Source of the DNA: a virus
Taxonomy: Duplodnaviria; Caudoviricetes
DNA length: 64,000 nt
Virus record (IMG/VR): IMGVR_UViG_3300021399_000108
Location: 99,521 to 163,520 of that record
Direction: 5' to 3' (one strand)
Part shown: piece after piece, positions 1-64,000 of the stretch
Position numbering within the stretch: the stretch's first letter is position 1
Layout of the letters: the number at the start of each line of letters is the position of its first letter
Notes under the pieces: model-generated
What the model was told of the DNA's origin: nothing
Databases searched by the model: none
The model's input: only the letters and a program-made list of their open reading frames with translations
Program-made: the position numbers and the translations under genes

Positions 1-1
1 A

Positions 2-1227: not shown

Positions 1228-1445
1228 TAGATGATATTATTGCTGAAAAGGAACGGCTAGAACGATTGTTAAAACAAGCTGTCGCGACAATGGAAAAAAA
1301 AGAAACTATTAATAAAATTCGCGCGCAAATGCGGATAAATCAAGCAAAATGTCCACATTATAGTACAAAATATAATTATGTATTCGTAGATGATACTTGC
1401 CCCTATTGCGGGAAAAAGCATTGTTTTACAAACAAGGAGGAGTAA
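1224..1445 (+). CDS. Small coiled-coil / zinc-ribbon protein
   Basis: ATGA overlap with previous stop; CPH...CPYCG motif. Confidence 0.6.
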   Translation: MIDDIIAEKERLERLLKQAVATMEKKETINKIRAQMRINQAKCPHYSTKYNYVFVDDTCPYCGKKHCFTNKEE

Positions 1446-1446
1446 T

Positions 1447-1671
1447 ATGGAATTTGTATTATATACTCTGCCCACTTGTGGTATTTGTCATATGATTAAA
1501 GCTAAGTTAAATGAATATAATATTCCGTATACTGAAGATAATTTTGAAAAAATTGCATCTTATTTACAAACCGATCGCGCGCCTGTCCTAAAAATTACTC
1601 ATAATGAAAAAGTAGAATTTATTACTAGCCCAGCAGATATGGTAAAATTAATTCAAAATTTTAAGGAGTGA
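1447..1671 (+). CDS. nrdH: NrdH/glutaredoxin-like redoxin
   Basis: SD AAGGAGG, ATG 1447; LYTLPTCGIC (CxxC) and APVL cis-Pro motif; directly upstream of nrdD. Confidence 0.8.
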   Translation: MEFVLYTLPTCGICHMIKAKLNEYNIPYTEDNFEKIASYLQTDRAPVLKITHNEKVEFITSPADMVKLIQNFKE

Positions 1672-1676
1672 TTATT

Positions 1677-3596: not shown

Positions 3597-3765
3597 ACTC
3601 GAACTTGATATACCGATGCCAAAAGCATGTATTGATTGTCCTTTACAAGATGAAGAATTCCATTATTGTCACGGAAGATTATGTAGCGCGGCATGGGAAT
3701 GTGAAAATTATGAGGAAGCACGACCGAAATGGTGCCCATTAATAGAGGTACAAGATGAAACTTAA
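3589..3765 (+). CDS. 58-aa Cys-rich hypothetical protein (absent from ORF track)
   Basis: MIKLELDIPMPKACIDCPL...RPKWCPLIEV; fills the nrdD-nrdG gap and overlaps both. Confidence 0.7.
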   Translation: MIKLELDIPMPKACIDCPLQDEEFHYCHGRLCSAAWECENYEEARPKWCPLIEVQDET

Positions 3766-4234
3766 AGGAATAATTGATTGTGATTTTACAAATTATAAAG
3801 AACCAGTATTAACATTAGAATTCCCATATTGCGATTTTAAATGTGATAAAATAAATAAATGTCAAGTTTGTCAAAATAGTGCTCTTGCAACCGAACCTGA
3901 TCTTAATATTTCTTTACAAGAAATATGGGGATTATATAGACAAAATCCATTGACAAAAGGCTTTTGCTGTCAGGGATTAGAACCATTTGATTCTGAACAA
4001 GAGTTATATGAATTTATAGATTTTATTCGTGCAGGTATGCAATGTAATGATACTATAATTATTTATACAGGATATGGAAAAAGTGAAATATCTCTACAAC
4101 TAGATGTTTTAAAGAATTATAAAAACATTATTATAAAATATGGCCGTTATTTAATTGGATATGAACCCCATTATGATGATGTACTAGGGGTTAAATTAGC
4201 ATCAAATAATCAATATGCGGAGAAAATATCATGA
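3755..4234 (+). CDS. nrdG: Class III RNR activase (radical SAM)
   Basis: CDFKC...CQN, GLEPF, IIIYTGY, KYGRY, ASNNQ motifs; next to nrdD. Confidence 0.9.
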   Translation: MKLKGIIDCDFTNYKEPVLTLEFPYCDFKCDKINKCQVCQNSALATEPDLNISLQEIWGLYRQNPLTKGFCCQGLEPFDSEQELYEFIDFIRAGMQCNDTIIIYTGYGKSEISLQLDVLKNYKNIIIKYGRYLIGYEPHYDDVLGVKLASNNQYAEKIS

Positions 4235-4428
4235 GACTACATGTAAATACGGATAAAGAACTAGTAAATTTAATTCGTGAAGGTTTACGAAATAATGATG
4301 GATATTGCCCTTGCATTATGAACAGTAAGGGTAAAGAAGAATATAAGTGTATTTGCCAAGATATGCGCGAGAATGTGCCAATAGGACAAACATGCCATTG
4401 CGGCTTATATGTAAAAGACGAGATGTAA
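4231..4428 (+). CDS. Ferredoxin:thioredoxin reductase catalytic-subunit-like protein
   Basis: GYCPC...CIC...CHCGLY matches the CPC/CxC/CHC pattern of the FTR catalytic chain. Confidence 0.8.
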   Translation: MRLHVNTDKELVNLIREGLRNNDGYCPCIMNSKGKEEYKCICQDMRENVPIGQTCHCGLYVKDEM

Positions 4429-4449
4429 TATAACATCTCGTCTTCTTTT
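4415..4449 (+). terminator. Intrinsic terminator after the RNR operon
   Basis: 12-bp stem AAGACGAGATGT/ACATCTCGTCTT followed by CTTTT; stop codon at the loop. Confidence 0.75.
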
Positions 4450-4451
4450 AT

Positions 4452-4480
4452 TTGACTTTTTAGAAAAATTATGATATAAT
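4452..4480 (+). promoter_or_regulatory. sigmaA promoter
   Basis: TTGACT-17 bp-TATAAT with extended -10 TG; SD AGGAGG downstream. Confidence 0.8.
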
Positions 4481-4507
4481 AAATTATCAAGGTAGGAGGA
4501 TATATAA

Positions 4508-48985: not shown

Positions 48986-49916
48986 CTAATTCCTCCTCTA
49001 ATTCATCTCCCCCTTCATATTCAATATTATCGTTACCGTCATCTTCTAGTGCTTCATTTTCAATTTCTTCTAAACGCTACGTCATATTATAACGAGCTTT
49101 TTTATCTTCAACCTGTTCGGCAAAATTACCCTCATTGCGCACTAGCCGCTGTAAATAATTTTGAATATTTTCCATCATAAAATCAATTGAATCTTGTGGT
49201 TCAGTATGCCAATTAGGATGCCAACCTTTTTTGCCATAATAAACCATAAGCTAACCCACAGACTAAAAGTCTGCCGCGGATTTCGCATTAGAAGCTTCAA
49301 ATTTAGCAATCTTAATAATATTATCGCGCGCGTCCATATCTTTTTTTACATCCATATTTTCGCGCAGACCTTTTTTAATACGTAATTCAATTTCGCAAAG
49401 ATCGCGCGCGTAATTTTGGAGAATGGGAGTTGATACGTTTTGAGTCGCAACAATTTGATTATAATAATTGTCTAACCATAATAACTATTCTTTTTTATAA
49501 GAGGGCGACCAATCTTTTTTTAATTGCTTTAATTTGGCCGCGCCTAATGCTTCAATTTCTTCATCAATTGTTTGTTCTTTTTGGGCAAGATGCCAGCGTT
49601 CGTTCTCATCTGCCCATTGCAAGGCTTGATAATGGTCATCCAATAATAAATTACAATAGGCGGTTAAGGTATGATCTTTATGCGTCTAATACAAAGACGT
49701 CCACTTATTTAAATCAAATGGTATATCTAAATAGCGGCATAATCTATCTACTTCTCCTAAACTATCTTGTGCAACCATTGTTTCTAAACAATTAATACAA
49801 ATTAAAGAATGATGTTGAGGGAAAAATTTGCTAGGAGTTCGCACAAAATCACTTAGTGGTTTTATTTGTTTGCATTTCAGGCATTTCCTTGATGTTGTCT
49901 TTTCTTCTTCTATCAT
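48978..49916 (-). CDS. Zinc-finger protein, candidate terminase small subunit (312 aa, TAG read-through)
   Basis: CLKC...CINC, LCRYLDIPF; SD AGGAGG; immediately upstream of and overlapping terL. Confidence 0.6.
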
Positions 49917-51183
49917 ATAATGTTTGTCCTCCTTTTGCAATTCGTCTTAATCTTTCACATTCTTTACAATTAGAAGCCCATCCGTCTTTTCGTCCCGCAT
50001 TGCGCCCAAAGAATAAGGGATCACGGGGTAACATTTTGCCGCAACGGAAACACTTCTTTAATTTTGAGTCGGGAGTCTATACCAGAATGCGGGCTTTTTT
50101 CGCTGCGGTCGCGATTGCTTTTGGAAGAGTACGCGCCATGATAGAACTTAAATGATTTTCATTATATACTAATCCAAACCTAATTTCTAATTCTTTTAAT
50201 ATATCACTATAAGGTACATGTTGAATTTTTCGCGTTAATAGAAAGTCTTGTACAGGATTCAGATTAGCGAGCGCGCGATAACGTTCAAAGTCAAAAATAA
50301 AAGTACGCCCGTATGTCTAAATTCTTGTTCTAAAAGTATCATATAATAAATCATAATTATTAATTAAAGCCGCAACATGATGATAGTCTTCCCAATCAAA
50401 TGTGTGCTGGCGCACCACCCATTTTACGAATGTCCCCTGCTTCGTCACTTTTGACTCATAGTCATCTATATTTTTAGAAATAGTATGTAATAGCGCATTA
50501 TCCACTCGCTTTTGCCATTGTTCTAGCGGCATCCAATAAGCGCAATCTTGTGACCAATCAACAAATTGCGCATGAGGATGCTGCATGAACATAAAATGTA
50601 GAGTAGGCTTATAGGCATCTTTCAAATAATATTGGTGCCGCCGCAGATCAATTAACCAATGCTTTAATTGGTATAGGCGATAATCACTAGCTAATTCTGG
50701 GGTATCTTCGGTAGGCGCAATTTCACCCTTATAGGCCGCAATAATTTTTTCTAAATTATCAATAGAGTCCCAAAGTTCTACCATACCGGGTATATCACTA
50801 TCGCCCGCGTCAATTAGCTCGCCCGTCTTTTTATTATAGCGGGGCCGCACAATAGTGGGTTTAGGGACGGTGTAGGTGCGCCTCTCCGTCATATGTTTTA
50901 GCGCCAATTGATCCGCGCCCGGGTTTTCTAAAATTTCATCAAGCGACGCATTTTTGTCTTCTTTTTTGCGGTAGCTTTGGTATCGCGTATTATTTGTCAT
51001 TATTTCGCCACGTTTTGCGGCGTTTAAACCTTCTTCATCTTTGCCGTAAAGTATGTATGAACCCATTTGCTATAATTCAGCAGGTGCGGGATCATACTAT
51101 AATTTGTCTAATATATCTGTAACAGCGGCGACTCGGTCTACGTCGCGCTATATTGAATAATCTAAGGAATAATTTTTTTTCAT
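49849..51183 (-). CDS. First gene of the morphogenesis operon; putative DNA-binding protein with C-terminal zinc finger (444 aa, 4 TAG)
   Basis: SYILYGKD; fragments 50317-51066 and 49849-50034 in frame; CFRC...KDGWASNCKEC. Confidence 0.7.
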
Positions 51184-51456: not shown

Positions 51457-52233
51457 TTACAATGTTTCATAAACCCCATTTTCAATATTCTCTAAAAAAT
51501 TGAAATACATTCCGGGAGTAAATTGTAATTGCACATTGCCACTTTTTATAGTGAGCGCTTTTATCTCTTTTCCGTTTTTCCCCAAATGGTTTATATCATA
51601 CTGAAATTGATATTTATTTGTCCAAATTGCGGTTCTTTTTTTAATTTCAGTGATTGCCTGTTGTATGTTTCCTTCCATACAGAGGGAATAAATAAGATTT
51701 TTGTCAATGTCTGAAAACATGCCATAAATAACCGTTGAATAGTTACCTTCCATATAATCAAAGCAGGTTCCTTCTGTGAATGTTTTGCCATTGTGACCTA
51801 TTTCAATGACGCCATATTTTTTTGAAATAACATCGCTTTTTCCGAATTGCGCAACGGAAAGAGCGGTTGAGCGAACGAGATTTAAGTTTCCAATGATAAT
51901 AATTCGAACAAGCAATTCGAACAAATCGCCAAACGCGCCAAAATCCTTGCTATTGACGGCCATTTCCTGTTTGTGTGTAGCATAAAATTTAATATAATCG
52001 GATAAAGAAAGCACATTTTCAGAATACAGTTTTTTCATACATTCTGAAATAAGAAAAGCAAGAAAAGAATTAATATCATTTGCGGAAAAAACAGAGGGAA
52101 ACTTTTCTGTCAATTCTACCACTTTTTCCATTGCTACCATGTTTACGTTTTCCGGCGTGAAAGCCATTTCTTCTATTGCCTTTTTTAACGTCCTTGCCTG
52201 CAAGGTATTAATAGAATAGTTATGCCGTGCCAT
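51457..52233 (-). CDS. Hypothetical 258-aa protein, possible degenerate PD-(D/E)XK fold
   Basis: SD GAGGT, ATG 52233, own promoter and terminator, no TAG; GDLFE...SD...IEIG pattern. Confidence 0.7.
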   Translation of the reverse strand: MARHNYSINTLQARTLKKAIEEMAFTPENVNMVAMEKVVELTEKFPSVFSANDINSFLAFLISECMKKLYSENVLSLSDYIKFYATHKQEMAVNSKDFGAFGDLFELLVRIIIIGNLNLVRSTALSVAQFGKSDVISKKYGVIEIGHNGKTFTEGTCFDYMEGNYSTVIYGMFSDIDKNLIYSLCMEGNIQQAITEIKKRTAIWTNKYQFQYDINHLGKNGKEIKALTIKSGNVQLQFTPGMYFNFLENIENGVYETL

Positions 52234-52288: not shown

Positions 52289-52317
52289 ATTTTACACGAA
52301 AAAATCAACTTTTGCAA
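52289..52317 (-). promoter_or_regulatory. sigmaA promoter for gene 51457-52233
   Basis: TTGCAA-17 bp-TAAAAT. Confidence 0.65.
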
Positions 52318-52351
52318 GCCCTTTTTAAATTGTTCATAAAAAATTCATATT

Positions 52352-52378
52352 TTAGCACTCTATCAAAAAGAGTGCTAA
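52352..52378. promoter_or_regulatory. CIRCE element (HrcA operator) 1
   Basis: TTAGCACTC-tatcaaaaa-GAGTGCTAA, exact consensus. Confidence 0.92.
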
Positions 52379-52385
52379 AATACAA

Positions 52386-52418
52386 AGTCAAAAATAGTCA
52401 AAGTCAAAAATAGTCAAT
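52386..52418 (+). promoter_or_regulatory. Two tandem CtsR boxes
   Basis: AGTCAAA-AAT-AGTCAAA (52386-52402) and AGTCAAA-AAT-AGTCAAT (52402-52418); consensus RGTCAAA-NAN-RGTCAAA. Confidence 0.8.
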
Positions 52419-52419
52419 T

Positions 52420-52446
52420 TTAGCACTCACTTGAAAAGAGTGCTAA
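52420..52446. promoter_or_regulatory. CIRCE element (HrcA operator) 2
   Basis: TTAGCACTC-acttgaaaa-GAGTGCTAA, exact consensus with a different spacer. Confidence 0.92.
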
Positions 52447-52466
52447 CATTTGCGCGAACGTTCATA

Positions 52467-52661
52467 TGTTACAACTTTGTTACAATCGTAATATTTTTGT
52501 AATATTTAAATGTATAATATGGCCATTTTTTGACCATATTTTTTTAGATGTGTAACATCTAAGAATGAAAATTGACAATATGGTCAAAAAGTGATACCAT
52601 ATACATGAAGGGAGGGAGGAAAGATGTTAAGTAAATGTTACAATCGTAACAATTCCGTAAC
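52467..52661 (+). promoter_or_regulatory. WalR/OmpR-family-like direct-repeat boxes, two composite copies
   Basis: TGTTAC-N5-TGTTAC-aat-CGTAAT-N5-TGTAAT (52467-52503) and TGTTAA-N5-TGTTAC-aat-CGTAAC-N5-CGTAAC (52625-52661); consensus TGTWAH-N5-TGTWAH. Confidence 0.5.
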
Positions 52662-52756
52662 AATTGTCGATTCTGGTAAAAATTCATACATTGTTGAATC
52701 TGGTACCAAAAAAGACATCACCACCACTTCCGCACCTCTCGCGCACATCCGGGCGC

Positions 52757-52843
52757 ACAAGCCGCAAGCAAGCTGCAAACAAGCTGCGAGCTGGAAAGCT
52801 ACAAGCTACAAGCTGAAAGGAGAAGCTACAATGACAAGCTACA
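52757..52843 (+). repeat. Cluster of short CAAGCT-like repeats
   Basis: AGCT at 52771, 52782, 52789, 52797, 52804, 52811, 52824, 52837. Confidence 0.7.
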
Positions 52844-52992
52844 TGATTGAAGGTATTTCACGCGATGGTCACAAAATGATTGATTGCACGTGCTACACAA
52901 CAAAAGAAGAAGCAGAAAAAGCCATTATGGTTGGAGATTGGCTGACAAAAAATGGCAAGATATACGCGCATATAGTGGAACGAGAGGCGTAA
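52831..52992 (+). CDS. Small early protein (53 aa)
   Basis: SD AAAGGAG before ATG 52831; stop codon inside a hairpin. Confidence 0.6.
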   Translation: MTSYMIEGISRDGHKMIDCTCYTTKEEAEKAIMVGDWLTKNGKIYAHIVEREA

Positions 52993-53035
52993 TGCCTCTT
53001 ATAATTATTAGATGTTTAACATCTAAAAAAATATG

Positions 53036-53064
53036 TTGACAATCTGATTTTTGTATGCTATAAT
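53036..53064 (+). promoter_or_regulatory. Consensus sigmaA early promoter, representative of more than 20 in 52.5-63.8 kb
   Basis: TTGACA-17 bp-TATAAT with extended -10 TG, 9 bp after a palindrome. Confidence 0.9.
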
Positions 53065-53094
53065 AAAGCCATCAAATGAAGGGAGACGGAAACC

Positions 53095-53397
53095 ATGCTA
53101 AACACTCTGAAAGCACTCAAAAACAATGACGGGCTCACTTTGAAAGATTACAAGTCTATTGTCTACAAAACAGGCTATCAGGTTGCCGATTATGGCGTCG
53201 AGTGCAAAACCGCCGAAGAAGCATTGAAAGCCATTGACGAAATGAATGGCGATTGCGGCATCTGGTACAGTGACGGCGTCTATTATGTAGATCACAGCTA
53301 CCGAGTAAATACGAAAAAGCAAGCTCTTGCGGATGGAAAAAAGTATAATCAAATCAGTGTGTTAAAATGGTCGGATATGTCTCTGGTGTATTGTTAA
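53095..53397 (+). CDS. Hypothetical early protein
   Basis: Own promoter, SD, 100 aa. Confidence 0.8.
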   Translation: MLNTLKALKNNDGLTLKDYKSIVYKTGYQVADYGVECKTAEEALKAIDEMNGDCGIWYSDGVYYVDHSYRVNTKKQALADGKKYNQISVLKWSDMSLVYC

Positions 53398-53517
53398 GCG
53401 ATACACCTTTTTCTTTTTGTTATAAAAATTAGATGTTAAACATCTAAAAAAATCTATTGACAACTAAAAATCTTTGCTGTATAATATAGACAAAGAAAAC
53501 GAAAGGAGATTGACACC

Positions 53518-53853
53518 ATGAAAACCGCCACGATGACAAGCCACTGCGCAAATGATAGATATAATCGAATTCAGAATATTATCTCGTTAATCGGTTTAGG
53601 AAACATTGTGCAGGAAAGAATAGAAGTATCCAGCAACAGAAACTTCGCGCGCAAAGTGCTTTGTGTAACAGATACGGGTGTAACCATTGTGAAATCAGAG
53701 AATAAAATGAAGATTATTACAATCTATGTAACCACTACACGAGAATTAATCAGAGTATACAATGGAAGAATGAACGTGCCAGAAAACGTTTGGGAGAAAG
53801 TACAATATAATGAAAGACGATATATCCGAAATGGTAAAACCATATGGCCGTGA
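53518..53853 (+). CDS. Hypothetical early protein, paralog of 56361-56681
   Basis: Shared IGxG, CxTDTGxTxVK, TxYVTT and GKTIW motifs. Confidence 0.85.
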   Translation: MKTATMTSHCANDRYNRIQNIISLIGLGNIVQERIEVSSNRNFARKVLCVTDTGVTIVKSENKMKIITIYVTTTRELIRVYNGRMNVPENVWEKVQYNERRYIRNGKTIWP

Positions 53854-53970
53854 TGGCCATATCTATATTTTTAGATGTTAAACATCTATTTTTTATGATT
53901 GACAACTATTAGATTCTTTGCTATAATTAAGATGTTCCAAGGAACAAAACAGAAAGAGAGGGAAAATACC

Positions 53971-54240
53971 ATGACAGTTACTTTCTACGTCTACAATCTG
54001 AATCAGGACATGATTCTCACTGCTGAGCATCTTCTGAACAAATCTATTCGATTCTTCATTAATTGGGATGGCGTCAAAGTCAAAGAGCATACAAAAGTGC
54101 GCATCACTTGGACAGTACCAACCACTCAAAAAGTAGCACTTAAAATTATGCAACAGTTTCAGGCACGGCTTTGCCGTATTCATGAATGGAATAAAGATGA
54201 AGTTGGTATATATGACTATGAATGGACGCTTGGAGACTAA
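53971..54240 (+). CDS. Hypothetical early protein
   Basis: SD GAGGG before ATG 53971; own promoter. Confidence 0.75.
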   Translation: MTVTFYVYNLNQDMILTAEHLLNKSIRFFINWDGVKVKEHTKVRITWTVPTTQKVALKIMQQFQARLCRIHEWNKDEVGIYDYEWTLGD

Positions 54241-54346
54241 AAGTCTCCAAGAAAAAATTAGATGTTTAACATCTAAGTTTGTCAATTGACAAAACAGTCT
54301 TTTCATGATAAAATGGGCTTGTTCCAAATGAGGAAGAGAATGGAGG

Positions 54347-54820
54347 ATGTCAAAAATGGTTACTAAAAAGACAATGTCAAAAATGGTATGGTTTGATATG
54401 GATGGCACTATTGCGGACCTTTATGGTGTTGAAGGTTGGCTTGAAGCTTTACGCGCGGAAGATACATATCCATATGAGCAAGCTGGCACGCTGGTAAATA
54501 TGGCACAGCTGGCAAAACTGTTACATAAGCTACAAGCTGTCGGCTATGGTATTGGTATTATTAGTTGGACAAGTAAATGCGGTTCTGATCTTTATAATGG
54601 TCAGGTTGCTTTAACTAAAATGTGTTGGTTGCATAAGCATCTTCCGTCAGTCAGTTGGGATGAAATAAGGATTGTCACTTATGGCACGCCTAAGCACACG
54701 TTCAAACATTATGACGATGACATTCTTTTTGATGATGAAGCAAATAACCGCAATGCTTGGCAGGGATTAGCATACAATCAGAATGACATTATTAGTACAC
54801 TTAAAGCGCTTATCAAATAA
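54347..54820 (+). CDS. HAD-superfamily phosphatase (nucleotidase-like)
   Basis: WFDMDGTIAD motif I, ISW motif II, K, LFDD motif IV. Confidence 0.85.
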   Translation: MSKMVTKKTMSKMVWFDMDGTIADLYGVEGWLEALRAEDTYPYEQAGTLVNMAQLAKLLHKLQAVGYGIGIISWTSKCGSDLYNGQVALTKMCWLHKHLPSVSWDEIRIVTYGTPKHTFKHYDDDILFDDEANNRNAWQGLAYNQNDIISTLKALIK

Positions 54821-54942
54821 GCGCTTATATTTTTTAGATGTTAAACATCTAAATATATCTATTGACACATACATATATTTATGGTATACTCTATTTGTAC
54901 AAAAGAGAAGGAAACTCTAACAAACCAGAAAGGAACAAAATT

Positions 54943-55146
54943 ATGAAGAAATATACGGTTGCGGAAGCTATTGGATATTTGATTGGTTCTCTTCTTATTG
55001 GTGTAGCTTTTCCGGCAGGACTGTTTACTCTTGCGTGGAATAATGTAATTGCAGATGCTTTTAACACCGCGCATTTCAACTATTGGACTTTCTTTACAGT
55101 GTGCTTAGGAATTTATTATCTTCGAGGAAATAAAAGTGCTAAGTAA
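54943..55146 (+). CDS. Small membrane protein
   Basis: Two hydrophobic segments; SD AAAGGA. Confidence 0.75.
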   Translation: MKKYTVAEAIGYLIGSLLIGVAFPAGLFTLAWNNVIADAFNTAHFNYWTFFTVCLGIYYLRGNKSAK

Positions 55147-55253
55147 TTAGCACTTTTATTTTCAAATTAGATGTTAAACATCTAAAAATAATAATTGACA
55201 ATCTTTCAAAGTCATGCTATAATAAAGCCATAAAAGAAAGGGAGGAACGAGTC

Positions 55254-55439
55254 ATGGAAAACAGATTTCAGATTATCACGGTATACGAAGATTGCGCGAG
55301 CAAAACAGAAAGCGTATCTGATATTCAAAGAGCACTTGAGGCCGCAAGTATTTATTGGATGGATCCCGATTGTCTGATCATAACAATTTATGATTTTAAA
55401 ACCCAGTCTACAATTTTAAAATATAACAAGCCGGAATAA
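55254..55439 (+). CDS. Hypothetical early protein
   Basis: Promoter, SD GGAGG, stop codon in hairpin. Confidence 0.75.
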   Translation: MENRFQIITVYEDCASKTESVSDIQRALEAASIYWMDPDCLIITIYDFKTQSTILKYNKPE

Positions 55440-55539
55440 CCGGCTTATTAAATTAGATGTTATACATCTAAACGCACCCCTTGACATTTCCATATATACA
55501 TGATATAATTTCATTATCAAATGGAAGGAGAGAAGAAGT

Positions 55540-55776
55540 ATGTACTATATTCATTATTACATTAATAACCAGCCCCATCGCTATGAATATGCTTTCGATT
55601 CCTTGTGGGCCGCAATATTTAAAGCTCGGGCGATCTTTGAAGAACATGGTATTCCTACCGACGTAATGCACGCAATGACAGGTGAAGTTTTAGCAATCTT
55701 TCAGCCCAATCATATCGAAATTAATGATGATTTAGAAGTTGACATTCAAGTTTTGGCTCTTACTCCGCTTGAATAA
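55540..55776 (+). CDS. Hypothetical early protein
   Basis: Promoter, SD AAGGAG, stop codon in hairpin. Confidence 0.75.
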   Translation: MYYIHYYINNQPHRYEYAFDSLWAAIFKARAIFEEHGIPTDVMHAMTGEVLAIFQPNHIEINDDLEVDIQVLALTPLE

Positions 55777-55896
55777 GCGGAAATTCTATTTTAGATGTTT
55801 AACATCTAAAATTATTAATTGACATTTTTCTAAATATATAGTATACTTATTTCAGAAAGACAAGGAAAAGTCTTTAAAACCAGGAAGGAACAAAGC

Positions 55897-56121
55897 ATGA
55901 AGGTTTATGTAGTTATTGAAGATGGCTGTGTTGAAGGTGTTTTCGATTCTGAGGGAAAAGCAGAAAACAAGATTGTAGATTGTGTAAAACATGATGAAAT
56001 TTCTCAGAATTTTTATGTAGATGATATTATTACAGGCAGATTTACCGGCACAATTGAAGAATGGGTACGAAAAGGAAATGTAAGTGATTATTGGTCTATT
56101 GAAGAATGGGAGGTGGAATAA
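55897..56121 (+). CDS. Small acidic early protein
   Basis: MKVYVV...GVFDSEGKA; promoter, leader hairpin, SD. Confidence 0.75.
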   Translation: MKVYVVIEDGCVEGVFDSEGKAENKIVDCVKHDEISQNFYVDDIITGRFTGTIEEWVRKGNVSDYWSIEEWEVE

Positions 56122-56360
56122 TCCACCTTTTATTTTTAAATGTTAGATATTTAATTTTTAATTTGACTTTATAAAAATTTATTGTATAATGTTATTACAA
56201 AATAAAGAAGATCAAGCACATAGACGTCTATCTGGTATGATATTTCAACTCTAATTTCATTTTATTTTTGAAACTTAGATGTTAAACATCTAACTATCAG
56301 GCTTGACTATATCCCAAAATTATGATATACTTTAATCATCAAAGAGAGGAGGACGAGACA

Positions 56361-56681
56361 ATGGAAATGACCTACCATGTACAGTATCAGCGTGCGGACA
56401 GAGTAAAGCATATCATTGAAGAAATTGGTATTGGTCAGGTAATTCGAGAGAAGTATATAGGTGCTGGTATGTCAGCTGGTAAATATATCTGTATTACAGA
56501 CACGGGTATAACACTGGTAAAAAACGAAGATAAGACAAAGCTGGTAACTATGTATGTTACAACACAGCATGAGCTGGTCATGGTTTATGGCGGAACTAAA
56601 AAGATTCCGGCGTTTCTAAAAAAGAAAGTAGATCATAATCAAAGTAAATTTATTAAAGAAGGAAAAACAATTTGGCGCTAA
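56361..56681 (+). CDS. Hypothetical early protein, paralog of 53518-53853
   Basis: SD GAGGAGG; motifs shared with the paralog. Confidence 0.85.
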   Translation: MEMTYHVQYQRADRVKHIIEEIGIGQVIREKYIGAGMSAGKYICITDTGITLVKNEDKTKLVTMYVTTQHELVMVYGGTKKIPAFLKKKVDHNQSKFIKEGKTIWR

Positions 56682-56825
56682 AACGCCAAATTTTTATTTT
56701 TAGATGTTAAACATCTAATTATATTCAGAAATAATTTTAAAAATATCTTGACAATTTTATTTTCATATAGTATAATGATTAAGAAAGTTGAAGGAAAACA
56801 ACTCAAAACCAGAAAGGACAACAAC

Positions 56826-57506
56826 ATGGAAAAGAAGCAGATTATCGTATTGGATACCGAAACTTGCAACATTCATAAAACTGATGAAGTCATTCCTGGC
56901 AATAATCTCACCTATAATATCGGTTGGGAAGCCGTTGTCCCAACTACTGGTGAAGTTCTTGAAGAACGTTCTTACCTTGTGCCGGAGATTTTTATGGGCG
57001 AATGGCGGAAAATGCAAACGGCATATTATGCAGATAAAATTCCGCAGTATTGGGCCGGATTGGCAACTGGTGAATATATTATGAAGCCGTTTTTTGAAAT
57101 TATGGTAGAAATTATCAAGTATTGCAAGAATCATAATGTTGTTGCAATTTGCGCGCATAATGCAAGATTTGATATTGACGCGCTTAACACAACCGCCGAA
57201 TATTTGACAGGGTATCGTTCCCGAGTGCTACCCGACCTTGAAGTCTGGGACAGTATGAAAATGGCCCGTTCTATATTTAATAATCGTCCTTCCTATAAAA
57301 ATTTCTGTACTGAAAATGGTTTTATGACTAAACACAAGACCCCGCGGTGTCAACTTACGGCAGAAGTTCTTTATCGTTTTATTACGCAGGATGTAGAATT
57401 TAACGAAGAACATACAGCCCTTGAAGATGTAAAAATTGAAAGTGAAATTGTCTTCGCTTGTTATCGTGCTCATAAGAAAATGGACAAAGTTCTGTTTCCC
57501 GCATAA
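56826..57506 (+). CDS. DEDDh (DnaQ-like) 3'-5' exonuclease
   Basis: VLDTET, AHNARFD, HTALED. Confidence 0.9.
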   Translation: MEKKQIIVLDTETCNIHKTDEVIPGNNLTYNIGWEAVVPTTGEVLEERSYLVPEIFMGEWRKMQTAYYADKIPQYWAGLATGEYIMKPFFEIMVEIIKYCKNHNVVAICAHNARFDIDALNTTAEYLTGYRSRVLPDLEVWDSMKMARSIFNNRPSYKNFCTENGFMTKHKTPRCQLTAEVLYRFITQDVEFNEEHTALEDVKIESEIVFACYRAHKKMDKVLFPA

Positions 57507-57632
57507 TGCGGGAAATTATTTAGATGTTAAACATCTAATATTCATTATTAAAAATTATAAAAAAGTCTTGACAAGACTATATGACTATGCTATAATAGGG
57601 TTGTCCGAAAGGGACAGGAAGGAGATAAAAAT

Positions 57633-57869
57633 ATGAAACCTAATAAAAATACTTTTGATGGATTTTCTACTGAGGAACTTGGTGCACTAATTGAAACACT
57701 TACAGCAACATATAAAGAGCGCCTTGAAAAAGATAAGCGCCGCAAGAAAGCCGAAGAATATGAAGGTAGAATTTATGATCTAATTTCTGAGGCACAGTCT
57801 GATGGTTTTGATGTTCGTATTAATGACGCATATATTCCTAAAGATAGTGCAGTTAATGTTGATTGGTAA
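57633..57869 (+). CDS. Hypothetical early protein
   Basis: Promoter, SD AAGGAG, 78 aa. Confidence 0.75.
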   Translation: MKPNKNTFDGFSTEELGALIETLTATYKERLEKDKRRKKAEEYEGRIYDLISEAQSDGFDVRINDAYIPKDSAVNVDW

Positions 57870-57893
57870 TATAGGAGAAAGGAAGTAAAAGTA

Positions 57894-58073
57894 ATGCGAG
57901 ACGCAGAAAAAGGAACTTACAATAATGAACCTGTTTTCTGTACTGTTAATGCTTATGGTGATTGTCCTTATTGTGATGAGTTTAACAGATGTCACATTGC
58001 AGACCCGATTGAAGATTGCGATGATTTTGCTTCTTTTTTTGAATCATGGGATGATTGGCTTGGAGCTTAGTAA
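57894..58073 (+). CDS. Small acidic Cys-rich protein ending TAG-TAA (absent from ORF track)
   Basis: MRDAEKG...CPYCDE...CHIADP.EDC...WDDWLGA; SD AAAGGA. Confidence 0.7.
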
Positions 58074-58352
58074 TTGGCGGTTAAACCGCCATTATTATTT
58101 AGATGTTAAACATCTAAAAATATATAAGAAATTAAAGAAAAAAGTTATTGACTTTTTCTATAAATTGTAGTATACTATAATTGTTCCAAGGGAAGGAACA
58201 AACAAAAGTGCCCAATGCCTATTTGAGGCGGGCGTCACACCTTCGGCCGTTCGTGTGACAAAAAAACTCTTGACAAACTACAAAATCAGTGCTATAATAA
58301 ATACGTAATCAAGAGAAGGAAAACTCTTAAAAACCAGAAAGGAAATTAAATT

Positions 58353-58682
58353 ATGTCTATGAACGCTTCTGAAATCAAGTCTGTCGCTCGTACTAACACT
58401 GTCGCTCTGCTGTCTGATGTTTTTGAAGCTAATGATGCCGTTCAGTTTGCTGACGCCTCTTGGGCTATCTTGCAGGAAGTTGACGGACAGGAAGTATGGA
58501 CGGAAATCACCGTCAAGAGCAAGGCTTATAAGCCGACTAAGGTTTCTCCGGTGTTTGATCCTTATGAAATTGCCGAAGAGTGGAAGGCCGAAAAGGAAAT
58601 GAAGGCCGCCGAGAAAAAGGCTAAGGAAGAAGAAAAGGCCCGCAAGATTGCGGAAAAGAAGGCGAAGGAAGAGGCGGAGTAA
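58353..58682 (+). CDS. Early protein with Lys/Ala/Glu-rich tail, probable paralog of 59594-59995
   Basis: Tandem promoters; FDPYEIAEEWK vs FDGYAAAEDFK; KAAEKKAKE tail. Confidence 0.8.
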   Translation: MSMNASEIKSVARTNTVALLSDVFEANDAVQFADASWAILQEVDGQEVWTEITVKSKAYKPTKVSPVFDPYEIAEEWKAEKEMKAAEKKAKEEEKARKIAEKKAKEEAE

Positions 58683-58917
58683 TCCGCCTTTTCAATTTCA
58701 TTTTAAAAATTTAGATGTTAAACATCTAATTCTAATACTTGACTTTTTCCTAAAATTATACTATACTGTTATTGTCATCAGGGAGGGGACAACAAAGAGT
58801 AAACAAAAAAACTTCAAAAAAAGTTGAAAAAAACTCTTGACAAGTTCCCGAAACTGTGATATAATAAATACGTAAACAGGACAAGGAAAAGTCCTTAAAA
58901 CCGGAAAGGAATTAAGT

Positions 58918-59277
58918 ATGAAGAAGAACACTATGCAGACCCTCGTCGCCTATTTCTCTGTTCAGGACTATCTTCCTTCTGATGTCGCTGATGCTGTTGA
59001 TGAAATCAAGGCCGAACTGAACCGTGGCGCGGAGAAGGCGCAGAAGAATCGTGAACTGTATGAGAGTGTAAAGCCGATTGTGTGGGAAGGCTTCCGCTCT
59101 GCTGGCGTCCCTGTCACTATCTCTGAACTGTTTGAAGAAATCAAGAACAAACTGCCTGATGGCTTTGGCAAGTCTAAGGTACAGTATGCAGTCACCCGTT
59201 TGTGGATTGGTGAACTTGTGAAGAAGGAAGGTAAAGTTAATGCCTACACTCTTCCGGAACTTGCAGAAAGGGCGTAA
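58918..59277 (+). CDS. Winged-helix-like protein, paralog of 61174-61503
   Basis: PVTISELFEEI...KVQYAVTRLW...GKVNAY. Confidence 0.75.
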   Translation: MKKNTMQTLVAYFSVQDYLPSDVADAVDEIKAELNRGAEKAQKNRELYESVKPIVWEGFRSAGVPVTISELFEEIKNKLPDGFGKSKVQYAVTRLWIGELVKKEGKVNAYTLPELAERA

Positions 59278-59593
59278 GCCCTTTCTTTTTTTTATAATTT
59301 CATTTTAGATGTTAAACATCTAAATATTATCAAAAAATTATAAAAAATTTCCCTAAAAAATACTTGACAACTATTATAAATTATAGTATAATAAAGGTGT
59401 TCCAAGGGAAGAAATGGAAACCTCGCAAGTCATCACTGAGGCTCAGCTTAAATGCTCTCGTGTAGTTTAGAAGCGTTAAATAAAACATCCTTTGGAAAAA
59501 TTAAAAAAACACTTGACAAACCTCAAACAAAGTGCTATAATGTAAGAGAACTAAGGGAAGGAAAACCCATCAAACCGGAAAGGACGAAAAATT

Positions 59594-59995
59594 ATGACTA
59601 ACACCGCTCTGAACACGAATCTGCGTAACTCTATCCTGCGTGACTTTATGGAGTTCGTCGCTGGTAAGTATGAAACGGACACGCTTTCCTGTTCTTCCTC
59701 TTCCTTTACATTCCCGGTTGTTGATGAAGAAGGAAATGAAAAGTTCGCTAAGATTTCAATTTCAATTCCCCGTGGCACTCGCAACGGTGAGGGCGGATAT
59801 GATGCTTTTGATGGATACGCCGCCGCGGAAGATTTCAAGCTTGAACAGGAAGAGAAGGCCGCAAAGAAGGCCGCGAGTGAAGCAAAGAAGGAAGCTAAGC
59901 GTAAGGCCGATGAAGCTAAGCGCGAAGCAAAGAAGGTAGTAAAGGAACTGAATGAAAAGGGCCTTGATGGTATGATTAAGGAAAGTGCGGAATAA
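59594..59995 (+). CDS. Early protein with Lys/Ala/Glu-rich tail
   Basis: Tandem promoters, SD, KAAKKAASEAKKEAKRK tail. Confidence 0.8.
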   Translation: MTNTALNTNLRNSILRDFMEFVAGKYETDTLSCSSSSFTFPVVDEEGNEKFAKISISIPRGTRNGEGGYDAFDGYAAAEDFKLEQEEKAAKKAASEAKKEAKRKADEAKREAKKVVKELNEKGLDGMIKESAE

Positions 59996-60115
59996 CCGCA
60001 CTTTTTTGTTTAGATGTTTAACATCTAAAATCCATACTTGACAACTAAAATATTTTATGGTATACTGCTTATGAAAAGTGAAGGAACAACACTTTAAAAC
60101 CAGAAAGGTATTATC

Positions 60116-60490
60116 ATGGTATTTAAAAGAAATAAAAAGGAAAACGTCTCTGAAACTATTAACGATAAAGAATATGCCAAATTATGGGATGATTGTTTCT
60201 TAGGACAAAAATTAGTAGAAGATATAATTAATGAGTATAAAATAAAAGAAATTAAAACTAAACTTTTCCCTACAAATACAGATGATTATAATATGGCATT
60301 GAAAGAATATCAAGAAATAAAAACAAAAATAATGATAGCAAAATCAGCATATAAAATGCAACTTAATAAAATAAAAGAATATTATGATAATCATTATAAT
60401 AATTTAGTCTATACAAAAACTTGGTTGCCTACACAATGGTTATCTCCGGATGAAGTTATTGAACGCACGATTAAAAGGGTTTTTAAATAA
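60116..60490 (+). CDS. Hypothetical early protein (AT-rich)
   Basis: Promoter, leader hairpin, 124 aa. Confidence 0.75.
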   Translation: MVFKRNKKENVSETINDKEYAKLWDDCFLGQKLVEDIINEYKIKEIKTKLFPTNTDDYNMALKEYQEIKTKIMIAKSAYKMQLNKIKEYYDNHYNNLVYTKTWLPTQWLSPDEVIERTIKRVFK

Positions 60491-60594
60491 CCCTTTAAAA
60501 ATATTTAGATGTTTAACATCTAAAATAAATGCTTGACAAATAACAAGGTCAATGTTATAATCAATATGTAAAAAAGAAACGGGAGGATAAAATT

Positions 60595-60759
60595 ATGACA
60601 AAGCGATATGTAACTCGGCAGTATCTTTGGAATACATTCTATACTTGGGGTGTATGGGATAAAAAAGAATGTAAATGGATTGTAAATGATAGATTGTATA
60701 GAAGAAATGTTCTTGAAATTGCGGATAAACTAAATAAAGAAAATAATAAGACTGTATAA
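60595..60759 (+). CDS. 54-aa hypothetical early protein (absent from ORF track)
   Basis: SD GGGAGG; MTKRYVTRQYLW...; stop codon in hairpin loop. Confidence 0.7.
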   Translation: MTKRYVTRQYLWNTFYTWGVWDKKECKWIVNDRLYRRNVLEIADKLNKENNKTV

Positions 60760-61173
60760 TACAGTCTTATAAAATTAGATGTTTAACATCTAAATATCAT
60801 TAGAAAAAACTTCAAAAAAGTTATTGACATATTTTCAAATCTATGGTATTATATCTGTGTCAGGTGAGGGGAGCAACCCTGGCAGGTCAAGGCAGGTTGC
60901 CGAAAGTCAACAGAGACAAGACGCATGGACGACGGAAACATTTGGCCAATAGCAAACAAAATGTGCGAAAAAAGTTTGCGAAACCCCTTGACAAACTCCC
61001 GAATCTATGATATAATAAAGATGTTCCAAGGGAGAGGATATTCCGAAATGCCCAACACGCTATCGAAAAATTCCTCTCCCAAAGGAAAAACCCCTTGACA
61101 TTCTCCACAAAATGTGGTAGAATATAAAAGAACAGAGGAAGGAAAACCTCAACAAACCAGAAAGGAAATTATT

Positions 61174-61503
61174 ATGACTAACGCTTCTCTGAACACTATC
61201 TACGCCGTGCTGTCCTCTGTCGATTTTGAGAACAAGGAAACCGTGCTTGCCGAAGTTTACAAGGATCTTCATCGCAACGATGAAGTCAAGGCAAAGAAGG
61301 CCGAAGCTTATGACGCTCTGCACGATATTATTGTCGGCGCTCTTGATGAAACTCCCGTTACTTGTGCCGAACTTTATGAAAGCATTGAGGACAAGTTGCC
61401 CGCTCGTGGTATTCGTGGCAAGGTGCAGTATGCTCTGACGCACCTGTGGCAGGATGAAATCAAGATCATTCCCGGCAAGCCGAACACTTACTGCCGGGCG
61501 TAA
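61174..61503 (+). CDS. Winged-helix-like protein, paralog of 58918-59277
   Basis: PVTCAELYESI...KVQYALTHLW...GKPNTY; three tandem promoters upstream. Confidence 0.75.
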   Translation: MTNASLNTIYAVLSSVDFENKETVLAEVYKDLHRNDEVKAKKAEAYDALHDIIVGALDETPVTCAELYESIEDKLPARGIRGKVQYALTHLWQDEIKIIPGKPNTYCRA

Positions 61504-61506
61504 TAC

Positions 61507-61543
61507 AAGAAAAGAACCGCTCTCAGCGGTTCTTTTCTTTTTT
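61507..61543 (+). terminator. Intrinsic terminator
   Basis: AAGAAAAGAACCGCT-CTC-AGCGGTTCTTTTCTT followed by a T-run. Confidence 0.85.
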
Positions 61544-61644
61544 AAAAAAATTAGATGTTAAACATCTAAAATGTATTCTTGACATTTCCTTATCTATATG
61601 ATATATTATACTTGTCCCAAAGGGATAGAAAGGAAGTAATCACT

Positions 61645-62115
61645 ATGACGAATGAAGTTATTAAAGCAATGCAGAGCAAGAATAGAAAAGAACATAAAAT
61701 TCGCAAGTGGTGGAATAAAAATAGCTATAAGATTCTTCGCGTAATTCTATTCCCGCTCTGGATTGGTAGTATACTGTTTGAAAAAATTCATGCATGGCTT
61801 AACAGCAAAGAAGCATGGAGCGAAAAACGTGCAAACGAAATTCTAAACTATTACATTCCTCGTCGTTCTCATTGGGACGCCGAAAATAAAAGTTTTGACT
61901 TCTTTGATAATGGTATGGGTTGGAATATCAAACTTGCAAAAAAATATTTGAAATTAAAAGACCGTAGATTCTGGAAAGTTCATTGTGCTTGGTGGGGTGG
62001 GAAAATGCGGAGTTTTCTTATGGACAAATTTGAACTTGAAGGCTTTACAAAAGAACTTGGTAATTGTTCCGAAGGATGGACAGAAGTTTTTTTCATACTA
62101 AACGAAAAGGAGTGA
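61645..62115 (+). CDS. Trp-rich protein with one transmembrane segment
   Basis: ILRVILFPLWIGSILF; SD AAAGGA. Confidence 0.75.
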   Translation: MTNEVIKAMQSKNRKEHKIRKWWNKNSYKILRVILFPLWIGSILFEKIHAWLNSKEAWSEKRANEILNYYIPRRSHWDAENKSFDFFDNGMGWNIKLAKKYLKLKDRRFWKVHCAWWGGKMRSFLMDKFELEGFTKELGNCSEGWTEVFFILNEKE

Positions 62116-62277
62116 ACAAGTCCATCATACACTACAATATAATTGTTAAAGGCGACTAACTCGCCTTAATATATTAGATGTTAAACATCTAAAATATTCT
62201 CTTGACATTTCAAAATAATATGTTATACTATCTATGAAAGGTGAAGGAAAACACCATAAACCGGAAAGGGCAAGGGC

Positions 62278-62769
62278 ATGAAATCTAACTATAAAATTCG
62301 CGCGCAAAAATTCATCCCTGTTATTGATGAAATTATTTATAATCATTGCAATATTGAATTGGAAATCAAACGTTTTAATGAAAAGCATAACCGTAGAGTT
62401 ATTTTTGAATATGGCTCGACACGTTATGCGTTTATTACATCTGATTATGTTATTAAAATGGATTATGATGATGGTGAAATTGAACGTTTCGGTGGTTGTG
62501 AAGATGAAATGGAACTATACGCGTCCGCCGTAGAAGATGGCATGGAATATCTTTTCGCAGAAATCACAAAATATGAATATAACGGGCATAATTATTACAT
62601 TATGCCCCGCATTAAAGGAATTGGCAGAACTTATGACAATGCAGAAGATTATATGACCGATAAAGAATTTATCTGGTGCAATGCTCACAAATTAACAGAC
62701 TTACATTATTTGAATTATGGTTGGAGAAATCGGCATATCTGTATTATAGATTATAGCGCTCGTGATTGA
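62278..62769 (+). CDS. Minimal protein-kinase-fold protein
   Basis: GSTR, YVIK, alphaC-like E, IMPRI, DLHYLNYG, IIDY. Confidence 0.7.
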   Translation: MKSNYKIRAQKFIPVIDEIIYNHCNIELEIKRFNEKHNRRVIFEYGSTRYAFITSDYVIKMDYDDGEIERFGGCEDEMELYASAVEDGMEYLFAEITKYEYNGHNYYIMPRIKGIGRTYDNAEDYMTDKEFIWCNAHKLTDLHYLNYGWRNRHICIIDYSARD

Positions 62770-62906
62770 GCGCTTTTAATTTAGATGTTAAACATCTAAA
62801 AAATATTTGGCAGCATTTAAAAAAAGTTGTTGACAAATCTTCTTTTCCGTGGTATTATGTTTACGTAAAGAGGAAGGAAACCTCACAAACCGGAAAGGAA
62901 ACTAAA

Positions 62907-63656
62907 ATGAGCAGAATTGTACTGGATACCGAAACCGCCGGAAGTCTGAACAAGCCCTTTGCGTATGATGTTAGCTATAAGGTTATTGGTGATGATGGAG
63001 ACAGCCTTGCGGAAAAGCATTTTGTGGTTGAACAGGCATGGCATAATCTCCCCCTGTTTGAAAGTGCTTACTATAAAGAAAAGCGCCCTAAGTATGTAGC
63101 ACTCATGCGGGCACGTAAAGCAGAAATGAAAAAATACGGCCATATTATGCAGGAATTGAAAAGAGACATCAAAAAATATGATGTAAAAGCCGTTTATGCT
63201 TACAACAGTGATTTTGATGATAATGTCATTACCTTTAATTGTGATTGGTATAAATGCGAAAATCCTCTTGATAATGTTCCCGTATTTGATATTATGGGCT
63301 ATGCAGGACAATTCATCACTAACACGCCGGAATATAAAGCTTTTTGTGAACAGCATAGTTTCTTTACCGAATCAGGAAATTATAGTCAAACAGCAGAAAC
63401 AGTTTTCCGTTATATTACGGGCAATGTTGATTTTGAAGAAGCACACATGGGCTTGATGGATTGTAACATTGAAACAGAGATTTTGCTCACTTGCTTTAAT
63501 GAAGGCGCCGTTCCTGAAACCGAATATCAGAAAGTCCGGGTTCTTGAAAGACCGCATAAAACCCCGTACATGATTAAAATTAATGGGAAAGTATTTTATC
63601 AGGGCGAATATCTGAAAAAGACACAGCGTAATAATGTATGGTACTTCACTGAGTGA
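62907..63656 (+). CDS. DEDDh (DnaQ-like) 3'-5' exonuclease, paralog of 56826-57506
   Basis: VLDTET, AYNSDFD, HMGLMD; shared TAExxxRxIT motif. Confidence 0.9.
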   Translation: MSRIVLDTETAGSLNKPFAYDVSYKVIGDDGDSLAEKHFVVEQAWHNLPLFESAYYKEKRPKYVALMRARKAEMKKYGHIMQELKRDIKKYDVKAVYAYNSDFDDNVITFNCDWYKCENPLDNVPVFDIMGYAGQFITNTPEYKAFCEQHSFFTESGNYSQTAETVFRYITGNVDFEEAHMGLMDCNIETEILLTCFNEGAVPETEYQKVRVLERPHKTPYMIKINGKVFYQGEYLKKTQRNNVWYFTE

Positions 63657-63782
63657 AGTACCTTTTATATTAAATTATATTTAGATGTTAAACATCTAAA
63701 AATTATTTACTTAATATAAAAATAATTGTTGACTTTTCTTAAATTATATAGTATAATAATTATGAAAGTGAGGGATGACGTG

Positions 63783-63926
63783 ATGAAAGTGATTGGCAGT
63801 CTCGCAATTTTATTTTCAAGTTGGGGCCTGATTTGGGGAATATTTGATAGAAAGTTTCTTCCCTTAACACTTATTGGTATTGCGCTTTCTGGTTTATATT
63901 TTTATGGTATGAAAGGAGAACATTAA
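63783..63926 (+). CDS. Small membrane protein
   Basis: Two hydrophobic segments; own promoter. Confidence 0.6.
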   Translation: MKVIGSLAILFSSWGLIWGIFDRKFLPLTLIGIALSGLYFYGMKGEH

Positions 63927-63927
63927 A

Positions 63928-64000
63928 ATGACTTTTGTTATGACAAGAACAAGCGATTCTACTCCTCAGATAAAAACTTTTGATACTATTCAAGACCTTA
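63928..64000 (+). CDS. Partial ORF running off the window
   Basis: SD AAAGGAG, ATG 63928, open to the window end. Confidence 0.55.
   Translation, partial: MTFVMTRTSDSTPQIKTFDTIQDL

Follow-up and report, generated by a model that had tools for sequence, protein, structure and literature searches.

What is the function of a short palindrome that heads each unit in a long array of small phage genes? The question is raised by a 64,000-nucleotide stretch (hereafter, the window) of the IMG/VR virus record IMGVR_UViG_3300021399_000108 (Caudoviricetes; record positions 99,521 to 163,520), which is the terminal 64 kb of one phage contig (163,520 bp, G+C content 32.7%). The record, which lacks an end repeat, is 93% complete, so that some units of the array may be missing. 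We favour, with moderate confidence, the reading that the palindrome is an operator at which a dimeric, lineage-specific regulator binds and contacts RNA polymerase, and that the shuffling of units seen around it is a by-product.

A search for TTAGATGTTWAACATCTAA with up to three mismatches found 22 matches in the window, at 52544-63699, compared to 0.07 in dinucleotide shuffles, and none in window positions 1-52543. An earlier note, made from the letters of the window only, had described an array of about 22 units headed by one 19-bp palindrome and its absence from the first 52.5 kb. The early-gene cassette array (window part 52544..63699, plus strand) continues past the end of the window to genome position 5058, with 10 further palindrome copies at genome 442-5058. 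If the contig ends are contiguous, a total of 32 palindromes are spread over ~16.5 kb, all in one region. The first copy (52544..52562) reads TTAGATGT-GTA-ACATCTAA and is located 9 bp before TTGACA-17-TACCAT. The other copies in the window, 19 bp each, start at 53008, 53429, 53871, 54258, 54834, 55167, 55453, 55791, 56275, 56700, 57520, 58099, 58711, 59305, 60010, 60505, 60775, 61551, 62174, 62781, and 63681.

The units share a common order of elements, consisting of a G+C hairpin with a T-run, the palindrome, an A/T-rich gap, a promoter of the form TTGACA-17-(TG)nTATAAT, a leader, a Shine-Dalgarno sequence, and one or two small genes. In line with the unit structure described in the earlier note, every unit in the window has a sigmaA promoter on the plus strand that matches 10-12 of 12 positions (n = 33 such plus-strand promoters within 52300-64000) and at least one open reading frame (ORF) with a Shine-Dalgarno sequence, and terminator-like hairpins are present in most units (20 found vs. 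7.3 in shuffles). These G+C hairpins differ from unit to unit and are separate from the palindrome. When 538 oriented sites are averaged, the palindrome, one extra flanking T...A pair, and the two promoter hexamers are conserved and nothing else is, while the terminator appears as a G-rich and then C-rich bump ending ~9 bp upstream. The units at 58099, 58711, 59305, and 60775 contain a palindrome-linked promoter, a 90-150-nt leader without an ORF, and then a second promoter lacking the palindrome, and carry the winged-helix and Lys-tail genes. Their palindrome-less inner promoters (58270..58298 on the plus strand, with others at 58837, 59513, 60988, and 61095) drive two winged-helix genes and two genes with Lys-rich tails. 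An empty cassette had also been proposed, but every palindrome-to-palindrome unit holds an ORF, and only the leaders before the second promoter of these four units are devoid of one. Around 10 units (window 54903-62900) share a 5' leader with a 4-5-bp stem of covarying sequence, a conserved AAGGAAAA loop, and AAACCRGAAAGGA before the start codon (e.g. 54903-54934, 58311-58342, 61135-61166, and 62868-62899), and downstream of several palindrome-linked promoters the leader is of a second type, GTTCCAAGGGA...GGAAC.

The element itself is an 8-N3-8 inverted repeat, TTAGATGT-N3-ACATCTAA, in which a TWA centre is preferred in this phage and the two 8-bp arms of the dyad lie about one helical turn apart. 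Eighteen copies are exact and four have one mismatch. Variation had been thought to be restricted to the central A/T; departures from the consensus do fall in the central triplet (GTA at 52544, TAT at 55453, and, outside the window, TGA at genome 1799), but the last base is also affected (53871). The distance to the promoter is also constrained. In the window, 15 copies lie 9 bp upstream of the -35 box (e.g. the plus-strand promoter at 53036..53064, TTGACA-17-TATAAT with TG), six copies (56700, 57520, 58099, 60775, 62781, and 63681) lie 29/30 bp upstream (e.g. 56748..56776, plus strand, gap 29), and the gap of 40 bp is found once, before the plus-strand promoter starting at 59364. For the whole genome, these numbers are 22, 8, and 1, respectively, and 31 of the 32 copies are located upstream of a promoter. 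The range of roughly 6-45 bp given in the earlier note was thus too loose, as the gaps are quantised. For a promoter spacer of 17 bp, this places the dyad centre close to -54, -74/-75, or -85. In four minus-strand units at genome 3295-4977, the palindrome is found 9 bp upstream of the unit's own -35 box, and it appears to work in either orientation.

This quantisation extends beyond a single genome. Among 538 palindrome-promoter pairs from this array and its relatives, the gap is 7-10 bp in 484 pairs, 17-21 bp in 20, 28-31 bp in 21, 39-40 bp in seven, and of another length in six, with peaks at 9, 19, 29, and 39 bp. Where the gap is at least 13 bp, 45 of 54 pairs lie within 1 bp of 19, 29, 39, or 59 bp, compared to an expectation of ~30%. 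The sequence of the gap is A/T-rich but site-specific, so that the spacing is conserved and not the spacer. The positions keep to one face of the helix, as is expected for an upstream operator of the class I type. Upstream face-of-helix regulators, such as CRP at class I promoters and p4 of phage phi29, contact the alpha C-terminal domain of RNA polymerase, and a dimer site of this kind functions at positions that are one helical turn apart.

The palindrome is also restricted to one class of promoters. A strict consensus search identified 69 promoters in the genome, 27 in the array and 42 elsewhere, and the 19-mer palindrome accompanies none of these 42 strict consensus promoters. Most of them (n = 38) are on the plus strand at 5.9-104 kb of the genome, a region that includes window positions 1-4500. 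They share the spacer TTGACtTtT..taaAAaTTATg.TATAAT, which contains a palindrome of its own (TTTTATAAAA), and look like a second, separately controlled promoter class. Because these 42 consensus promoters occur without the 19-mer, this palindrome tags a subset of promoters and is not needed for a functional-looking promoter.

Relatives of the array were retrieved via its exonuclease and winged-helix proteins and complemented with six complete genomes. No megablast match was found among 50,697 GenBank phage records. About two dozen IMG/VR contigs contain the exact palindrome; judging by their sample identifiers, they appear to come from rumen metagenomes. Generalised arm patterns find more. The relatives have the same layout with other elements. 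These comprise the type TTAGATGT-AWT-ACATCTAA; TTAGACGT-N3-ACGTCTAA, with 130 symmetric sites vs. one hybrid and a free centre; TTGGATGT-AWT-ACATCCAA, with 33 copies in a complete genome (G002); TTAGGTGT/ACACCTAA with a 2- or 3-base centre; and a longer, double AGTTAR-N6-YTAACT element with a GCCGGCG core, located farther from the -35 box. Yet other elements exist. Between lineages, the arms change on both sides together, and within a genome they are uniform, with one exception. In this exceptional genome, arm position 5 is polymorphic (A/G) and 11 of 37 sites are hybrids. Half-sites can therefore vary independently, which would fit independent half-sites better than an obligatory hairpin. A comparison of the loci L019 (TTAGATGT type) and L085 (AGTTAR type) is informative about what travels between lineages. 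They share a double-promoter winged-helix unit with 87% identity, but the homology starts only with the first base of the -35 box and stops where the terminator ends, and each locus has its own upstream element. As the upstream element is not part of this homologous stretch, it is a property of the resident genome and is not carried along by the travelling unit.

The perfect dyad, its uniformity within a genome, its change as a set between lineages, its restriction to one promoter class, and its position on one helix face together argue for a dimeric regulator acting on promoter-bound polymerase, and a pure recombination site or bare hairpin would not produce this combination of features. From these features, we infer that one dimer would sit at each joint, behind the terminator of the preceding unit and ahead of the next promoter, on a constant helix face, with its centre near -54 or two or three turns farther upstream (-74/-75, -85). 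There, it would contact promoter-bound host RNA polymerase, most plausibly via the alpha C-terminal domain on the A/T-rich stretch between the operator and the -35 box. In this way, one factor, probably phage-encoded, could switch ~31 immediate-early promoters jointly and apart from the ~42 other host-type promoters. The direction of this switch may be a shut-off, in which the polymerase is over-stabilised or trapped; we favour this over activation because the promoters already have consensus -35, extended -10, and -10 elements. The p4 protein of phi29 activates a weak promoter and represses a strong (early) promoter through the same contact. By analogy, we lean towards coordinated shut-off or polymerase holding, with activation or insulation of tandem strong promoters as alternatives. 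The suggestion of the earlier note that the palindrome is the binding site of one regulator has therefore gained the helical phasing, the single promoter class, and the symmetric, lineage-specific arms in its favour, as well as the absence from host chromosomes described below, with the regulator itself as the inferred part. A literature search retrieved no paper with the 19-mer in a phage context, nothing comparable on early-promoter palindromes, and no description of such a system.

A sequence-specific protein may not be required at all if a DNA or RNA structure formed by the element, a cruciform or hairpin, insulates the units from one another, acts as a roadblock, or provides a processing signal. 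The perfect dyad symmetry is kept by paired changes, the element directly follows terminators, and the single-stranded hairpin is stable (-7.6 kcal/mol for the element here; -7.6 and -8.8 kcal/mol with z about -6). Nevertheless, we regard this explanation as very improbable. About 30 sites per genome share one sequence, while the adjoining terminators all differ, and it is the distance to the next promoter that is fixed, not that to the gene before it. Hybrid half-sites do occur in one genome without apparent loss of the array. In addition, the element is flanked by T-rich sequence upstream and A-rich sequence downstream, which is the opposite of a terminator on either strand, and this wrong polarity rules out the palindrome as a terminator. 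No known RNA family reached its gathering score in the array.

The regulator might instead be borrowed from the host, such that the palindrome is the site of a host transcription factor that ties early expression to host physiology and the different palindrome types reflect different hosts. A protein needed at time zero is most simply one that is already in the cell, and, as detailed below, no convincing phage-encoded binder was found. The phage also appears to use host regulators, as sequences of host-type CIRCE and CtsR operators lie just to the left of the array (52351-52446). Here, in window 52340-52450, two exact CIRCE-type inverted repeats (TTAGCACTC-N9-GAGTGCTAA) surround two CtsR-box-like direct repeats (AGTCAAAAATAGTCAAA). 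These sites, which resemble operators of host heat-shock repressors, are positioned between the minus-strand gene 51457-52233 and the first palindrome. We scanned one genome per species for 185,579 bacterial and archaeal species (596 Gb) and found the exact 19-mer in only 13 stretches, either as lone copies, due to chance, in unrelated taxa or as several copies on short contigs of metagenome-assembled genomes (MAGs) assigned to Acutalibacteraceae, Oscillospiraceae, Clostridium, and Bacillota. The multi-copy MAG contigs look like phage fragments binned with a possible host, which would suggest hosts in the Oscillospirales. No bacterial chromosome in the scan has repeated copies of the exact palindrome, which speaks against a host regulon, although degenerate natural sites would be missed by this search. 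Moreover, near-identical cassettes occur in phages with different elements and would require frequent switching of host factors, and the sites are perfect and invariant, unlike those of typical host regulons. A host factor is consequently an unlikely reader of the palindrome.

The array also shows extensive turnover. The closest relative consists of two contigs, L042 and L010, which abut in unit 20. Compared to it, many units of the array are replaced or missing, and the shared units are 70% to 98% identical. The breakpoint comparison suggested in the earlier note revealed that unit 19 (palindrome plus gene 61645-62115; 61551..62173, plus strand) is missing in the closest relative as an exact one-unit indel, with the crossover in the shared palindrome (alignment A2). 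Furthermore, the exonuclease paralog unit is found at another position of the array in this relative. The 714 palindrome-bounded units of the retrieved loci and this array fall into 241 families, of which 152 are singletons, and in 39 observations of the commonest family, 22 different right-hand neighbours were counted, with the orientation of the loci not normalised.

Such observations would also be expected if the palindrome were primarily a recombination site for the capture and shuffling of cassettes, either as the target of a dedicated enzyme or as a homology patch similar to that of the promoter-early stem-loop (PeSL) cassettes discussed below, with the proximity to promoters being incidental. 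The indel of unit 19, the relocated exonuclease paralog, and the large pool of cassette families agree with this explanation. So do a promoterless copy at genome 3261, where the orientation of the units flips, and a GIY-YIG-like gene in the inverted block. This gene, encoding a T5orf172/MUG113 protein (L058 3295-3885, minus strand), is part of the short block of inverted units beyond the window, and the promoterless palindrome is located just downstream of it. The T5orf172 gene is, however, present in only a few relatives. No match to the tyrosine recombinase family PF00589 was detected at E <= 0.1 in six-frame translations of the whole 163.5-kb genome, while 14 of 14 control genomes were positive. 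The 10-bp phasing to the -35 box is not required for recombination, and the arms, uniform in a genome and different between lineages, point to a trans-acting reader. In addition, where lineages differ in their element, exchange sets in at the -35 box, so that units move without the element. We therefore consider a primary recombination function improbable. Given the lack of a tyrosine recombinase and the start of cross-lineage exchange at the -35 box, turnover at the palindrome does not look like the work of a dedicated site-specific system, but like homologous exchange at the longest shared sequence. Since the palindrome is the longest identical sequence at every joint, ordinary homologous recombination there could delete, insert, move, and invert whole units. 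Of the shuffling site proposed earlier, the turnover at the palindrome thus stands. An integron-like system is rejected because of the missing integrase, the promoter in every unit, and the position of the core-site likeness in the variable centre of the element. The earlier note had rightly suspected that this resemblance to GTTRRRY is due to chance, as the centre that carries it is freely variable in the relatives.

Returning to the operator reading, several observations weigh against it. The first of these come from the search for its reader. Two candidates named in the earlier note did not hold up. For the protein encoded at 51457-52233, searches of Pfam and PHROG gave no match, and its conservation is poor, with homologues in only three loci at 30-35% identity. 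For the winged-helix proteins of the array, the fold was confirmed, but the recognition helix does not covary with the palindrome type and is the same, sometimes to the residue, in TTAGATGT, AGTTAR, TTGGATGT, and TTAGGTGT phages and in phages without the element. As judged from this constancy of the helix across phages with different elements, these proteins cannot set the specificity of the palindrome. A third candidate, a 405-aa protein encoded next to the array, likewise retains the same helix-turn-helix (HTH)-like segment across four element types. A phyletic profile of genome-wide presence and absence over seven complete genomes leaves fam4 as one real family that tracks TTRGRTGT-type palindromes. 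It also leaves a 100-aa protein (53095-53397), less cleanly than fam4, since this protein occurs with other element types too. No family is common to all TTAGNNGT-type genomes and missing from the others. The array encodes two fam4 paralogs on the plus strand, at 53518..53853 (111 aa, pI 10.0) and 56361..56681 (106 aa, pI 9.5). The model of the latter (md7c1eb7f3a4b, pLDDT 84.7) predicts a helix, a four-strand meander, and two helices, but has no recognisable DNA-binding fold, and fam4 has no match in Pfam, PDB sequences, Foldseek searches of PDB and BFVD, or VIA beyond a generic four-strand meander. A profile search likewise retrieved no fam4 homologue from the TTAGACGT-type genome, in which each arm of the element is changed at one base. 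Hence, fam4 is a weak candidate for the partner of the palindrome, a lead rather than a finding, and there is no convincing phage-encoded binder among the candidates examined. Further counterpoints come from the sites themselves. The copy at genome 3261 lies between two convergent terminators, and in the relatives 242 of 780 copies have no promoter within 60 bp by a strict pattern. The spacing classes could in part be inherited promoter variants, and symmetric changes of the arms are equally expected of a hairpin.

If the operator reading is extended to a specific pairing, each lineage would have its own palindrome and its own small reader, making the elements at the joints swappable 'address tags'. 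In TTRGRTGT lineages, this reader would be fam4, acting through the polymerase as a master switch of ~30 early promoters. We put this forward as a speculative and rather doubtful proposal. If true, a lineage could re-tag its whole early region by replacing the pair, and the tag would also set the points of unit exchange. It would then represent both a new DNA-binding fold and a new way of organising the host-takeover region of a phage.

Parts of this arrangement have precedents. Stoperators of mycobacteriophages L5/D29 can be likened to the array, in that one phage protein reads ~30 copies of a single short operator-like sequence found in the small gaps between genes. Stoperators are asymmetric 13-mers that are orientation-dependent and act on elongating polymerase, whereas the site described here is palindromic, serves promoters on either strand, and is located between terminator and promoter, upstream of the -35 box. 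CRP and phi29 p4 control host regulons or single promoters, in contrast to one type of site that tags ~31 phage promoters and doubles as a seam. Integron attC sites also differ, as they are imperfect, 57-141 bp long, carry conserved R''/R' core sites, and delimit promoterless cassettes recognised by an IntI-type tyrosine recombinase, whereas the units here have their own promoters, a 19-bp perfect palindrome, and no tyrosine recombinase. In Bacillus phage SPbeta, SPBRE elements are read by the master repressor MrpR (YopR) (PMC10516654). There, too, one conserved short element is repeated in phage promoter regions (about ten in SPbeta, 31 of 32 copies here), but SPBRE is a 15-bp motif and its reader is a repressor with a tyrosine-recombinase fold that maintains lysogeny. 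The phage studied here has no PF00589 match, three times as many sites, all at terminator-promoter joints with fixed phasing, and no lysogeny genes shown. The PeSL cassettes of T4-type phages (Arbiol et al. 2010, PMC2839356; Comeau et al. 2014, PMC4122927) are similar in forming dense arrays of small, mostly ORFan early genes with a strong sigma70-type promoter, an A/T-rich upstream region, and a stem-loop terminator. In both systems, the indels and replacements that distinguish close relatives have the motif as their boundary, with homologous exchange at a shared regulatory joint. However, the stem-loop of PeSL cassettes is a G+C-rich terminator without an invariant shared sequence, and its position relative to the promoter varies (five subclasses). 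In contrast, the phage described here, which is not T4-like and has a Firmicutes-type host, combines unit-specific terminators with a separate, invariant, A/T-rich 8-N3-8 palindrome that is helically phased and changes as a set between lineages. On the regulatory side, SPBRE/MrpR and the L5/D29 stoperators (PMC12266134) come closest; in architecture, PeSL does.

The early host-takeover regions of large phages contain most of their unknown genes, including anti-defence genes, and how such regions are switched and turned over is known in detail for only a few model phages. A simple, countable rule is followed here by an entire family of uncultured, TAG-recoded rumen or gut phages: every unit has a single palindrome, the palindromes keep to one face of the helix, and they are replaced as a set from one lineage to another. 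With this rule, metagenomic phage genomes can be searched by a sequence signature for their early region and the promoters in it, the 19-mer becomes a defined bait for the master regulator, and natural unit boundaries are available for studying the exchange of phage accessory genes. If the reader protein is new, it would additionally offer orthogonal operator-regulator pairs for Firmicutes.

Most products of the array have no database match. Those with recognisable features, all encoded on the plus strand, include an NT5C-type 5'(3')-deoxyribonucleotidase-like protein (54347..54820), a DEDD-type exonuclease-like protein (phrog_20187; 56826..57506), and a winged-helix protein of 119 aa (58918..59277). 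The exonuclease-like protein has a paralog at 62907-63656 that belongs to the most widespread cassette family, and the winged-helix protein has one at 61174-61503. In the model of the winged-helix protein (pLDDT 90.4), the best fold matches are domains of the ArsR/SmtB, MarR, Fur, H1, and Z-alpha types, with weak E-values. The four internal paralog pairs listed in the earlier note (starts 53518/56361, 56826/62907, 58353/59594, and 58918/61174) were all confirmed; the third pair comprises the Lys-tail proteins (58353-58682 and 59594-59995). The 405-aa neighbour of the array (49852..51066, minus strand) is conserved, being full length in 12 relatives, and its frame requires read-through of two TAG codons. 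Its C-terminal part contains the HTH-like segment followed by a four-cysteine (zinc) ribbon-like segment, and Pfam searches gave no match. It heads a minus-strand gene block with almost no sigmaA-type promoters and could be a delayed transcription factor. Stop codons of the array ORFs are TAA (n = 28), TGA (n = 9), and TAG (n = 3). A small Cys-rich ORF at window 57894-58070 ends in TAG directly followed by TAA, which fits a genome that reads through TAG later in infection.

The ends of the genome provide a few additional observations. In two complete relatives with direct terminal repeats, G002 (L156-L164) and G006 (L185-L191), the array also straddles the contig ends, and the early array may be located in or beside the terminal redundancy, as in SPO1- or T5-like phages. 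Clusters of AAGCTGGAA(A)GCTGGAA repeats flank a ~150-bp stretch of nearly pure A+T immediately behind the last palindrome and beside a TAG-rich helicase-like gene (positions 5195-5600 of L058, the start of the genome), which looks like a replication origin. A similar AGCTG-rich run is found inside unit 1 (window 52740-52830).

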